The translations under genes were made by a program, and so were the position numbers. The notes beneath the pieces were generated by a model. That model did no database searches. It was not told the origin of the DNA and saw only the letters and a list, made by a program, of their open reading frames with translations. A stretch of 16,076 bases of DNA from a virus. Taxonomy: Duplodnaviria > Heunggongvirae > Uroviricota > Caudoviricetes. How positions within the stretch are numbered: position 1 is the stretch's first letter; the number at the start of each line of letters is the position of its first letter. The stretch lies in IMG/VR virus record IMGVR_UViG_2541047946_000010; one strand, written 5' to 3'. Shown here piece by piece: positions 3,368 through 12,655 of the stretch.

Positions 3368-3694
3368 ATGACTAAAAATACTCGTTTTTCCCCTGAAGTC
3401 CGTCAACGGGCAGTCCGTATGGTTCTGGAAAGTCAGGGCGAATATGACTCACAATGGGCGACAATTTGTTCCATTGCTCCAAAGATTGGCTGTACGCCGG
3501 AGACTCTGCGTGTCTGGGTTCGCCAGCATGAGCGGGATACCGGGGGCGGTGATGGAGGGCTCACCACCGCTGAACGTCAGCGTCTGAAAGAGCTGGAGCG
3601 TGAAAATCGTGAACTGCGCCGCAGTAACGATATCCTTCGCCAGGCTTCCGCTTATTTTGCGAAGGCGGAGTTCGACCGCCTCTGGAAAAAATGA
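3368..3694 (+). CDS. IS3-family transposase OrfA (helix-turn-helix and leucine-zipper part)
   Basis: 108-aa [33 protein letters not shown]... recognised as IS629/IS1203-group OrfA; ends in an A6 run (AAAAAA at 3686-3691) that overlaps the orfB start. Confidence 0.93.
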
Positions 3695-4581
3695 TGCCAC
3701 TGCTGGATAAGCTGCGTGAGCAGTACGGGGTCGGACCGCTATGCAGCGAACTGCATATTGCCCCGTCAACGTATTACCACTGTCAGCAACAGCGACATCA
3801 TCCGGATAAACGCAGTGCCCGTGCGCAGCGCGATGACTGGCTGAAGAAAGAGATACAGCGCGTATACGATGAAAATCACAAGGTATACGGTGTGCGTAAA
3901 GTCTGGCGTCAGTTGTTACGGGAAGGTATCAGAGTGGCCAGATGCACTGTGGCACGTCTCATGGCGGTTATGGGACTTGCCGGTGTTCTCCGGGGTAAAA
4001 AGGTCCGTACGACCATCAGCCGGAAAGCCGTTGCCGCAGGCGACCGCGTAAACCGTCAGTTCGTGGCAGAACGACCTGACCAGCTGTGGGTGGCTGATTT
4101 TACTTACGTCAGCACATGGCAGGGCTTCGTCTATGTGGCGTTCATCATTGATGTGTTTGCCGGATACATTGTGGGGTGGCGGGTCTCATCGTCCATGGAG
4201 ACGACATTCGTGCTGGATGCACTGGAGCAGGCGTTATGGGCCCGTCGACCGTCCGGCACGGTCCATCACAGTGATAAAGGTTCTCAGTATGTATCGCTGG
4301 CCTACACACAGCGGCTTAAGGAAGCCGGATTACTGGCATCAACAGGAAGTACAGGCGACTCGTATGACAACGCGATGGCGGAGAGCATCAATGGTCTTTA
4401 CAAAGCGGAGGTAATACACCGTAAGAGCTGGAAAAACCGTGCAGAAGTGGAACTGGCCACACTCACGTGGGTGGACTGGTATAACAATCGACGATTGCTG
4501 GAAAGGCTGGGCCATACTCCTCCGGCAGAAGCAGAAAAAGCTTATTATGCTTCCATCGGAAACGATGATCTGGCAGCCTGA
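3691..4581 (+). CDS. IS3-family transposase OrfB (DDE catalytic domain), in -1 frame relative to orfA
   Basis: 296-aa ORF; DDE residues visible in [16 protein letters not shown] and [12 protein letters not shown]; starts with ATG overlapping the orfA TGA, consistent with programmed -1 frameshift fusion typical of IS3 elements. Confidence 0.93.
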
Positions 4582-8715: not shown

Positions 8716-8800
8716 AGTCAGAGATAACAATCAACTAATACTGTTTTGTTGATTTTTGCTTGTAATTGGCGTTCTGGTCTGATTTTTGTGGAGTAAGTTG

Positions 8801-9184
8801 ATGCGTGATATTCAGATGGTTCTTGAGCGTTGGGGTGCGTGGGCGGCTAATAATCATGAAGATGTGACCTGGTCGTCCATTGCCGCCGGTTTTAAGGGAT
8901 TAATTCCTTCAAAAGTAAAATCTCGCCCGCAATGTTGTGACGATGACGCGATGATCATTTGCGGGTGCATGGCCCGTCTGAAAAAGAACAACAGCGATTT
9001 ACACGATTTATTAGTAGATTATTATGTATGTGGTATGACATTCATGTCACTGGCAAGTAAGCATTGCTGCTCGGATGGTTATATCGGGAAAAGGTTACAG
9101 AAGGCTGAGGGCATAATTGAAGGGATGTTAATGGCATTAGATATCCGGTTAGATATGGATATCGTTGCTAATAATTCTAATTGA
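8801..9184 (+). CDS. Q: Late-gene antiterminator Q (short QuuD/phage-21-like type)
   Basis: 127 aa from ATG 8801 with GGAG 7 nt upstream ([24 protein letters not shown]... with Cys-rich [12 protein letters not shown]); the ORF-track start at 8786 is a TTG extension; lies immediately upstream of the late promoter region and lysis genes. Confidence 0.85.
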
Positions 9185-9202
9185 TATGCAATTGTTTACT
9201 AA

Positions 9203-9235
9203 AAGTTATTAAAAATGGGGCGTGGAAACGCCCCC
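9203..9235 (-). terminator. Intrinsic terminator on minus strand, likely 3' end of the porin transcript
   Basis: Minus-strand RNA would read GGGGCG-UUUCCA-CGCCCC followed by AUUUUUAAUAACUUUU. Confidence 0.45.
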
Positions 9236-9321
9236 AAAATAAAGGGTAATATATAACAGAAGGTTTATATAGTAAGAAGCAAGGTAGTGCTTCTAAAGGA
9301 AGTGGCTTGAGGGCTCCACTT

Positions 9322-9361
9322 ATATGTTGCGGAGGCAAAGCCTCCCGCAACATATCTTTTT
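9322..9361 (+). terminator. Intrinsic terminator on plus strand downstream of Q (tR'-like); also a 3' stem-loop of the convergent porin gene
   Basis: ATATGTTGCGGAGGC-AAA-GCCTCCCGCAACATAT (about 15-bp stem with one bulge) followed by CTTTTT. Confidence 0.6.
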
Positions 9362-9372
9362 CGTAAGTCAGA

Positions 9373-10455
9373 TTAGAACTGATAAACCAGACCTACAGCG
9401 ACGATGTCGTCGGTATCAATACCAGCTGTTTTGGTAAACTTACTATCGTCAATTAAGTTGATTTTGTAATCAACAAAAGTAGACATGTTTTTATTAAAGT
9501 AGTAAGTAGCACCGACATCGACATACTTGACTAAGTCTCGGTCACCATGAACACCAAGGTCTTTACCTTTTGACTGAAGGTAAGCAACAGATGGGCGCAG
9601 ACCGAAGTCAAACTGATATTGTGCTACTGCTTCAAAGTTTTGTGCTTTGTTTGCAATATGGTTATTACCAAAAACGGTCATATTCTGAGTTTCAGAATAT
9701 GTGGTAGCCAGATAGATATTGTTCGCATCATATTTCAGGCCTGCAGCCCATACTTCCGCATTTTTGCCGGAGGCATTGAATTTGCTCTTACCATAGGCGA
9801 CCTGACCGTCAGTGCGATCTGATTTAGCATAGGTTGCACCCACGCCGAATCCTTCATACTCATAAGTAGTGGAGAAACCGAAACCATCACCATTGGCTTC
9901 AGTTACGTCAGTGCGGTCATTTTTACCCTGATACTGAGCAGCAAAGTTCAGGCCATCGACCAGACCAAAGAAGTCGTTGTTACGATAAGTTGCAACACCA
10001 GTAGTGCGACCAGTCATGAACACATCTGTTTGGGTCCAGGTATCACCACCGAATTCTGGCAGAACGTCAGTCCACGCACCGATGTCGTATGCTACACCGT
10101 AGTTACGGCCGTAATCGATGGAGCCGTAATCACCAAATTTCAGGCCTGCAAATGCAAGACGGGTTTTGTCTTTGGAAGAACCTTGAGATTCAGCACGGTT
10201 GCCTTTGAATTCATATTCCCACTGACCGAAACCAGTCAGTTGATCGTTGATTTGGGTTTCACCTTTGAAGCCAAGACGGGCATAAGTAGTATCACCATCA
10301 TCTGCATCATTAGAGGAGAAGTAGTGCTTGGCATTAACTTTCCCGTATAGATCCAGCTTGTTACTGTCTTTATTATAAATTTCAGCTGCCTGAGCAGACA
10401 TCGCCATCAGTACTGATGCAGCTACAGCAGAAATTGCCACTGTTAATTTTTTCAT
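9373..10455 (-). CDS. nmpC: Phage-borne OmpC-family general porin (NmpC/Lc-like moron)
   Basis: 360 aa from ATG 10455 with AAGGG ribosome-binding site; signal peptide [23 protein letters not shown] followed by [17 protein letters not shown]-terminal ...VGLVYQF with terminal Phe; classic 16-strand porin hallmarks; the upstream Met at 10515 lacks a ribosome-binding site and is rejected. Confidence 0.92.
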
Positions 10456-10880
10456 TGTACGCCCTTTTTTTGAACTATTATTAAAAAATGATGTCACTGC
10501 GCGATAAATATTCATCTAATCAATGTGATTATTTCAAGATGTAAGTTTTAGTTTCTCATTTAATTTGTGAAGTAGATCTCTATTTTTATCTGAACCTTTT
10601 CTATCTAATCCTATTCATGGCTCTTGTCTGAACAAAAATAAATCTATTAGCTAATTTATATTAATGGCACTTATTTATAAGTGCTCTATAATTCTTTAGC
10701 TTAATTTAAACAAACTAAAAATAACATCGGAAATTATTAACTGATTATTTGTTGAAGTTTTCTTATGTATTTGTGGTGGTGTTTTGAACACTCGGTGGCA
10801 TTCTCACAAATATCATTTAGTAGTTTACGTACGTAAAAAATTGGTTATGCTGTTAAGAGTGGTTACTTCGTCACACAGCT
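10456..10880 (-). promoter_or_regulatory. AT-rich porin upstream regulatory region (promoter not precisely mapped)
   Basis: About 425 bp of visibly AT-rich non-coding DNA upstream of the porin start, contrasting with flanking phage genes; typical of horizontally acquired morons and of porin control regions. Confidence 0.35.
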
Positions 10881-10881
10881 T

Positions 10882-10912
10882 AAACCCGCCGTCGAGCGGG
10901 TTTTTCCATTTT
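10882..10912 (+). terminator. Intrinsic terminator on plus strand upstream of the lysis cassette
   Basis: AAACCCGC-CGTCGA-GCGGGTTT followed by TTCCATTTTTT. Confidence 0.5.
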
Positions 10913-11043
10913 TTGAGTCTCGATATTAGCTGATAACCCAATACCTGAGTTATTCACTGACTCCGAATCTGTTACGTTTCTGCCTTTATTGCGATACGTA
11001 ATATCCCCTTAATTTACACCCGCTTTGTCTGCGAGGTGGGGTT

Positions 11044-11259
11044 ATGAAATCCATGGATAAGTTAACAACGGGTGTCGCCTATGGCACCTCAGCAGGTAGT
11101 GCCGGTTACTGGTTTTTACAGCTGCTCGATAAAGTCACGCCCTCACAGTGGGCAGCAATAGGTGTGCTGGGTAGCCTGGTATTTGGCCTGCTGACGTACC
11201 TGACAAACCTTTATTTCAAGATTAAAGAAGATAAGCGCAAGGCTGCGAGAGGTGAATAA
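11044..11259 (+). CDS. S: Class II holin (pinholin, phage 21 S type) with dual-start motif
   Basis: 71 aa, [26 protein letters not shown]...; Met1-Lys-Ser-Met4 dual start; two hydrophobic segments; GAGGTGG ribosome-binding site; recognised as the S21/EssD family. Confidence 0.9.
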
Positions 11260-12245: not shown

Positions 12246-12539
12246 TTATTGTGAGCAATACACACGCGCTTCCAGCGGAGTATAAATGCCTAAAGTAATA
12301 AAACCGAGAAATCCATTTACGAATGTTTGCTGGGTTTCTGTTTTAACAACATTTTCTGCGCCGCCACAAATTTTGGCTGCATCAACAGTTTTCTCCTGTC
12401 CAATTCCCGAAACGAAGAAATGATGGGTGATGGTTTCCTTTGGTGTTACTGCTGTCGGTTTGTTTCCAACAGTAAACGTCTGTTGAGCACATCCTGTAAT
12501 AAGCATTGCCAGAGCGGCAGAAAACAACATTTTTTTCAT
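12246..12539 (-). CDS. bor: Bor lipoprotein (serum-resistance-associated)
   Basis: 97 aa from ATG 12539 (MKKMLFSAALAMLITGCAQQTFTV...), lipobox ITGC; recognised as lambda Bor; the ORF-track start at 12587 is an upstream extension. Confidence 0.9.
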   Translation of the reverse strand: MKKMLFSAALAMLITGCAQQTFTVGNKPTAVTPKETITHHFFVSGIGQEKTVDAAKICGGAENVVKTETQQTFVNGFLGFITLGIYTPLEARVYCSQ

Positions 12540-12655
12540 CTTATTATCCTGCATTGTTAAAAACGGCAGAATCCTATGTGACAACAATTAAACGATAGTT
12601 AAATGGATTGATGAAAATTAAAACTATATAGGTGGATGCTCAGCCTATTGGAGGA

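Follow-up and report, generated by a model that had tools for sequence, protein, structure and literature searches.

The stretch of DNA analyzed here, referred to as the window, comprises 16,076 nucleotides (nt) of the IMG/VR virus record IMGVR_UViG_2541047946_000010 and is part of a defective lambdoid Escherichia coli prophage. On its minus strand, an intact phage porin gene of the NmpC/Lc type (9373..10455) is followed by a structured 3' untranslated region (3'UTR) of 167 nt (9209..9375), which is almost certainly IpeX, the small RNA (sRNA) associated with nmpC in the K-12 prophage DLP12 (qsr') and with lc in phage PA-2. A preliminary description of the sequence had located an OmpC-family porin gene on the strand opposite to Q, between Q (8801-9184, plus strand) and the lysis cassette (holin at 11044), and had proposed an IpeX-like element downstream of it; this arrangement stands. 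A segment near the 3' end of the RNA matches, in antisense, the ribosome-binding regions of ompC and ompF, the genes of the two porins that IpeX is reported to repress, and this match bears on how the RNA may work.

The porin gene starts with an ATG at 10455 and ends with a TAA at 9375-9373, encoding an OmpC-family general porin of 360 amino acids with a signal peptide. The translation scores 521 bits against the porin OmpC subfamily model of NCBIfam (cutoff 484) over residues 8-360, as befits a full-length 16-strand general porin, and its closest relatives are Lc and NmpC. The homology to these porins that had been claimed earlier is borne out by an identity of 91% to PA-2 Lc and by synteny shared with DLP12; the differences from Lc cluster at residues 181-187 and 219-229, and the identity to K-12 OmpC is 63%. 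In K-12, nmpC of DLP12 is broken by IS5, 58 nt before its stop codon, whereas the porin gene of the window carries no IS5 and is intact, so that porin and IpeX can share one transcript here. A region equivalent to the CRP site upstream of PA-2 lc maps to 10563..10583 on the minus strand by alignment from J02580.1 (misc_binding 1363-1383); it is nearly invariant in the alignment, and its sequence, ATAGAGATCTACTTCACAAAT, contains the half-site TCACA. The 3' end of the porin gene yielded no sigma-70-like promoter on the minus strand, which fits co-transcription of porin and IpeX. Within the coding sequence there is a terminator-like hairpin (9679-9701, minus strand; 10-bp stem, 3-nt loop, followed by ACCGTTTTTG), which is probably masked by translation.

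The identity of the 3'UTR is established by alignment to the published element. The annotation of K-12 ipeX (NC_000913.3 574365-574531, reverse strand, 167 nt) begins with the first base of the nmpC stop (PMC8313858, supplementary file 1); likewise, the element in the window begins at the first nucleotide of the porin stop codon, and it ends just beyond the U-run of the terminator. The global alignment that had been called for, between 9375-9209 and K-12 ipeX, gives 158 identical positions of 168 aligned (approximately 94%), and blastn finds the 188-nt interval between the porin stop and Q to be 93.7% identical to the nmpC-quuD interval of DLP12 and to the sequence 3' of PA-2 lc. A covariance model matches the element with 189 bits. 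As in K-12, 162 nt separate the stop codon from the end of the U-run, and the synteny of Q, porin, holin/endolysin/spanin, and bor is that of DLP12 and phage 434B. Thus, homology, position and strand beside an nmpC/lc-type porin, and a terminator approximately 165 nt past the stop all place the element in IpeX. In comparison with the IpeX of DLP12 and PA-2, position, strand, the 167-nt length, terminator, and gene neighbors are the same; the ten differences from K-12 fall in the 5' leader, the loop and bulge register of hairpin 1, the top of hairpin 2, the loop and base of hairpin 3, and the terminator loop, whereas the segment proposed below as the antisense seed is identical to that of DLP12 except for one U in a U-run.

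The locus is therefore not new but an already described and very common pairing of a prophage porin with a regulatory RNA: ipeX-type 3'UTRs occur in 2510 of 5426 complete E. coli genomes (approximately 46%), as well as in active lambdoid phages. The current RefSeq table of MG1655, which does list micF and micC, does not contain ipeX. A search of 8800-11100 with Rfam, at gathering and permissive thresholds, returned no family at the gathering score; the best hits were chance hairpin matches (E 0.4-3.8), and none of the models matched is named IpeX. SvsR, a prophage sRNA repressing lamB, was considered as a relative and rejected, being unrelated and located in cI. According to the literature, transcription of IpeX starts at the porin promoter, and processing yields a stable small RNA (PMC12197685). 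Published reports state that it lowers the synthesis of OmpC and OmpF post-transcriptionally, by a mechanism called unclear, and that ipeX RNA alone can repress in trans. A natural uncoupling is seen in one IMG/VR contig (L105, 2598-3300), where an IS200/IS605-family transposase gene with its flanking hairpins has been inserted 14 nt past the porin stop, parting the porin from ipeX in an otherwise identical prophage.

The 167-nt stretch folds far better than expected for its composition, at −53.6 kcal/mol compared with −31.7 ± 3.4 kcal/mol in 200 dinucleotide shuffles (z = −6.5), none of which is as good. The preliminary description of a structured 3'UTR of roughly 170 nt is thereby upheld in extent, and the two structures that it named, a bulged hairpin at 9322-9355 and a GC stem with a U-run, are found where they were placed. 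Its list of hairpins was incomplete, however, because three more lie in between, at 9321-9300, 9296-9273, and 9271-9250. The minimum-energy and centroid folds accordingly consist of four hairpins and a terminator.

Support for this architecture comes from a second group of sequences. A covariance model was built from five lambdoid-type sequences only, with the fold of the window as its structure, and it recovers, full length and with E ~1e-18, an IpeX-like 3'UTR that is only about 60% identical and lies 3' of the nmpC porin in phages P7, JL22, and phi456 and in 116 mostly P1-like plasmids from E. coli, E. fergusonii, Klebsiella, and Salmonella. Examples of the P7 type are found at 2677-2865 of phage P7 (L005), 1498-1688 of L166, and 1498-1677 of L167, the last being an E. 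fergusonii variant with a different terminator and a longer match to ompF (−28..+9). Beneath these matches, the phage and plasmid records have no annotated feature, and in the literature found the P7-type element is not called an ipeX homolog. It accompanies a homologous porin (81% amino acid identity) and has the same hairpins 1-3, A/U-rich seed, and terminator as the element in the window, but differs in some 20 extra nt before the terminator, in a poorly formed hairpin 4, and in a seed whose complementarity has moved toward the start region of ompF and the start codon of ompC. No IpeX-like 3'UTR was detected by blastn and the covariance model in 80 chromosomal porin loci of Salmonella, Citrobacter, Enterobacter, Serratia, and others; across the loci searched, the element appears confined to phage-borne porins. 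The record 'Salmonella phage SPF_0923' (ON032529.1, L175) was tried as a further phage porin module and rejected, as it carries a ydbK-ompN-uspF-sitA block in chromosomal order; this record seems to contain host DNA.

Covariation was counted on a model-guided alignment of eight distinct sequences, since a MAFFT alignment misplaced hairpin 1 of the P7 type. Standard pairs fill 95.5% of the cells and 19 of 46 pairs are changed on both sides, values that none of 500 shuffles reaches; when the pair partners are slid, pairing drops to 38-51%. A scan of IMG/VR with the porin yielded 80 nearly identical loci and no added diversity. Hairpins 1-3 and the terminator are well supported, and hairpin 4 is the weakest.

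Hairpin 1 (9322..9355, minus strand) is a long bulged stem-loop in the minimum-energy fold, with an outer stem of 8 bp, a bulge, and a GC-rich inner stem of 6-7 bp. Its outer helix is 100% paired in the eight sequences, and in two of its pairs both partners differ in the P7 clade. On the porin strand it is followed by no U-tract, and it is therefore not a terminator for the porin transcript. On the plus strand, the same hairpin (9322-9365) runs directly into CTTTTTC and could terminate transcripts derived from Q, shielding the porin from convergent antisense transcription; other alleles and the P7 clade have a shorter A-run, or none, behind the plus-strand CTTTTTC. Hairpin 2 (9300..9321, minus strand) is recognized in both fold and alignment and has a stem of 6-8 bp, in which AU/GC and UA/AU compensatory pairs distinguish the lambdoid and P7 clades, while the loop is nearly unchanged: CCCUCA (9304-9309) in seven of the eight sequences, from both clades, and CCCUUA in E. 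albertii. This loop is complementary to the UGAGGG and GAGGG Shine-Dalgarno sequences of ompF and ompC, and its GCCCU also matches the AGGGC of the phage porin itself. Hairpin 3 (9273..9296, minus strand; stem of 7-9 bp) is paired in 97% of the cells, with three pairs changed on both sides. Hairpin 4 (9250..9271, minus strand) is a weak stem of 7 bp, all A-U, bearing the loop ACCUUCUG, an anti-Shine-Dalgarno sequence; it is the least conserved helix (87.5% paired), and its loop CUUCU is unpaired with a probability of 0.98. The Rho-independent terminator (9211..9234, minus strand), found by both terminator scan and fold, has a 7-bp stem (9234-9217, six GC pairs), five pairs of which are changed on both sides in the P7 clade, and a U-run at 9215-9211 (tail ATTTTT). 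It is preceded by the A/U-rich UUUAUUUU, a feature of Hfq modules, yet its tail has only five U residues; the literature on Hfq dependence is mixed.

The proposed seed occupies nt 104-136 of IpeX (9237..9269, minus strand) and is antisense to positions −31..−3 of ompC mRNA, a span that covers both the MicC site and the Shine-Dalgarno sequence. Its reverse complement, AAATAAAGGGTAATATATAACAGAAGGTTTATA, aligns with ompC AAATAAAGG----CATATAACAGAGGGTTAATA at 27 of 29 bases with a single 4-nt insertion. Across the Shine-Dalgarno sequence there are 15 contiguous pairs, one of them G-U, a run reached by one in 1000 shuffles. The similarity score of 32 is not attained in any of 2000 dinucleotide shuffles; it exceeds the maxima found in 50 kb of K-12, both for 3330 windows of 60 nt (23) and for 46 annotated start regions (21), and equals the score of the validated MicC-ompC pair. 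Complementarity of the seed to a translation-initiation region beyond chance, as expected of an antisense sRNA, is thus present. The inner seed, UAUUACCCU, is together with its flanks antisense to the Shine-Dalgarno region of ompF, matching 13 of 14 positions at −13..+1. By contrast, the leaders of ompA, phoE, and both phage porins give only background scores against the seed, and ompA is reported to be unaffected by IpeX. Full-length cofolding points in the same direction, with gains of −19.9 kcal/mol for ompC and −12.1 for ompF, compared with −7.0 for ompA and −8.8 for the porin's own leader.

In the P7 type, the seed region has a different sequence and is complementary to ompF −11..+9 (6/2000 shuffles) and to ompC −6..+12 (4/2000); all 12 nt of a 12-nt block are common to this element and the ompF-binding part of MicF. 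Between the lambdoid and P7 clades, no other block of conserved sequence is as long as the seed region. Published INTERFACE accessibility mapping reports nt 128-142 of IpeX, the linker, to be open, and this interval overlaps the seed. On the side of the target, 5365 of 5426 genomes carry an ompC leader with an identity of 99% or more. In a K-12-type ipeX allele on one IMG/VR contig (L137), one U of the hairpin 4 loop is replaced by A (CCTTCAGTT), which would break one of the proposed pairs with ompC. As to origin, a 51-nt alignment links the reverse complement of nt 84-132 to the leader and first codons of ompN, which points to an inverted porin 5' end as the ancestor of the seed.

Taken together, the locus probably represents a lysogenic-conversion module, 'phage porin + IpeX', in which porins are swapped by means of a co-transcribed silencer RNA, and replacement of porins through such an RNA, the published function, is most likely also its function here. 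The porin would be transcribed from its own CRP-influenced promoter, independently of the lytic circuit of the phage, and its transcript would carry the 167-nt structured IpeX and end at the intrinsic terminator. Processed IpeX, in line with the literature, would then accumulate and lower OmpC and OmpF synthesis post-transcriptionally, with the result that the cell exchanges both of its major porins for that of the phage. For the silencing step, we prefer direct occlusion, by antisense pairing, of the ribosome-binding sites of ompC and ompF, at a probability of roughly 0.55-0.6, the pairing itself being predicted from sequence. In this model, hairpins 1-3 and the terminator would serve as a stabilizing scaffold, whereas hairpin 4 and the linker before the terminator would provide the antisense seed. 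The loop ACCUUCUG and the bases following it would pair with positions −31 to about −7 of the ompC mRNA, covering the MicC site and the Shine-Dalgarno sequence and blocking ribosome binding, and UAUUACCCU would pair with the Shine-Dalgarno region of ompF over a shorter, plausibly Hfq-requiring stretch. The phage porin, whose leader lacks the target sequences, would escape, and the seed itself may be an inverted remnant of the 5' end of a porin gene.

Several points weigh against direct pairing. The literature states that IpeX acts without base pairing or complementarity to ompC and ompF (PMC3617542, PMC10690425). The match of the lambdoid seed to ompF, taken alone, is marginal, being reached in 39 of 2000 shuffles, and both seed and targets are A/U-rich, with the seed partly sequestered in hairpin 4. 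Windowed hybridization energies, calculated with neither accessibility nor similarity taken into account, failed to separate ompC and ompF from ordinary start regions, and whole-sequence duplex folding produced only meaningless long duplexes; because the energies were uninformative, the argument relies on antisense similarity scores, run lengths, shuffles, and full-length cofolding. In addition, the covariation rests on essentially two clades and on an alignment fitted to the model structure, and the prophage carrying the allele of the window is defective.

The main rival is the published indirect view, according to which IpeX acts either by titrating a protein (Hfq, ProQ, or some other factor that binds RNA) or by inducing an envelope-stress response, its complementarity being a functionless leftover. 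The two papers just cited speak for this view, as do the description of IpeX as Hfq-independent, the single annotated likely-direct target, and the four stable hairpins, which could bind protein; moreover, the resemblance of the reverse complement of nt 84-132 to a whole porin 5' end, that of ompN included, means that the match could be historical. However, the match falls exactly on the ribosome-binding sites of both reported targets and not on those of ompA, phoE, or the phage porins, and it is as strong as the validated MicC-ompC pairing. Furthermore, complementarity persists in the P7 clade although the nucleotides differ, whereas a relic in decay would be expected to lose it, and inspection of sequences and folds by eye revealed no GGA motifs of the CsrA type in loops. 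Indirect action is regarded as unlikely.

Still less probable is a role confined mainly to cis, whereby the 3'UTR terminates and stabilizes the porin mRNA, hairpin 1 stops transcription coming from Q, and this allele has no significant role in trans. The strong intrinsic terminator, the plausibility of plus-strand hairpin 1 with CTTTTTC as a terminator for transcripts leaving Q, and the multiple 3' hairpins, which typically guard against exonucleases, would all be in keeping with it. Yet a single terminator would suffice for termination, conservation of the A-run preceding hairpin 1 does not extend to the P7 clade, and the seed and the loop of hairpin 2 show sequence conservation between clades, in contrast to the covarying stems; repression in trans by ipeX RNA alone, as reported in the literature, also stands against it. 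That the 3'UTR encodes a small protein can be practically dismissed. The list of open reading frames (ORFs) does contain an ATG-initiated frame of 58 amino acids (9353-9177, minus strand), but its start codon lies within the stem of hairpin 1 without a Shine-Dalgarno sequence, it passes through the terminator into the 3' end of the Q gene, and the frame stops after 26 codons in K-12 and 11 in P7; it was rejected because it is not conserved.

The surroundings of the porin are those of a lambdoid prophage. At the left end of the window, a ybhC-like host gene of the pectinesterase family (1-1284) adjoins the gene of a lambda-type integrase with an Arm-DNA-binding domain (1419-2489), and the element thus appears to be seated at the classical lambda attachment site. 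Between int/xis and gene O lies an IS3-family insertion sequence (3368-4581, plus strand) with an HTH_Tnp_1 ORF and an rve ORF, in which the ALIL frameshift pseudoknot of Rfam is matched over its full length (3649-3765, 120 bits). It is followed by the replication genes O and P, a Dam methylase gene, and the QuuD-like antiterminator gene Q, which is identified by Pfam Phage_antitermQ (181 bits) and by the quuD annotation in identical genomes. Q is convergent with the porin gene, and its end is 26 nt from the U-run of the IpeX terminator. Beyond the porin come a P21-type holin, endolysin, spanins, and, downstream of this lysis cassette, a serum-resistance lipoprotein gene of the Bor/Iss family (12246-12587, minus strand), which adds another lysogenic-conversion gene to this late region. 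Neither the ORF list of the window nor the ten ORFs scanned show a cI/cro/N immunity region, and the prophage therefore looks deleted and defective. The 1.45-kb segment around the porin is 100% identical to E. coli NCTC86 and to active temperate phages such as 2G7b and PhiR11_1. Upstream of the holin gene, there is a sigma-70-like promoter, ATGGCA-17-TATAAT (10664-10692, plus strand), and approximately 200 nt past it, just before holin, a strong intrinsic terminator (10882-10903, plus strand). These look like the Q-dependent late promoter pR' and tR'; if so, the porin/ipeX cassette sits between Q and its target promoter, and late transcription bypasses the porin gene.

The locus as such is ordinary, a textbook lysogenic-conversion module present in nearly half of the sequenced E. 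coli genomes. What goes beyond the known is an architecture supported by covariation, the unlabelled P7-type clade, and a pairing model that is easily tested. For twenty years, IpeX has been an unexplained sRNA said to act without base pairing, and the antisense match, which a second phage lineage has kept in function rather than in sequence, makes the question directly testable. Many phages and colicins use OmpC and OmpF as receptors, and beta-lactams enter through them. Given these roles, a mobile cassette that takes their place is relevant to superinfection exclusion and, in clinical strains, to antibiotic permeability.

In terms of known regulators, the balance leans slightly toward IpeX being a phage-borne functional mimic of MicC and MicF, which would address ompC through some 24-27 bp, plausibly without Hfq, and ompF through a shorter, Hfq-assisted pairing, with a seed derived from an inverted porin 5' end, a phage porin that escapes, and a P7-type clade in which the seed is re-tuned to the start codons of ompF and ompC. 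Seen as such a mimic, the P7 type, with its scaffold kept by compensatory changes and its seed re-tuned, would imply that the porin-plus-silencer cassette is exchanged among phages of unrelated types and that its targeting evolves. MicC targets the same segment of the ompC leader (−30..−15) as IpeX (−31..−3), with a score of 32 in both cases, and the motifs GUUAUAU and CCUUUAUU are common to the two RNAs, which have no overall homology. While the seed of MicC is at the 5' end of a primary transcript, that of IpeX is internal, made up of a loop and linker near the 3' end of an RNA derived from an mRNA; unlike that of MicC, it contains a 4-nt insertion and extends over the Shine-Dalgarno sequence. 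The P7-type element shares with MicF the sequence UUAUUUAUUACC, nt 17-28 of MicF, which pairs with the Shine-Dalgarno to start region of ompF. The lambdoid type matches 11 of these 12 nt, and its complementarity to the ompF coding start is shorter; scaffold and genomic origin of MicF and IpeX are different. Among horizontally acquired RNAs that, like IpeX, regulate genes of the core genome are InvR, encoded on SPI-1, and the prophage-borne, 3'-derived DicF. Neither has a sequence relationship to IpeX: DicF targets cell-division and metabolic genes, whereas InvR has its own promoter but, as the repressor of ompD, likewise acts on a major porin.

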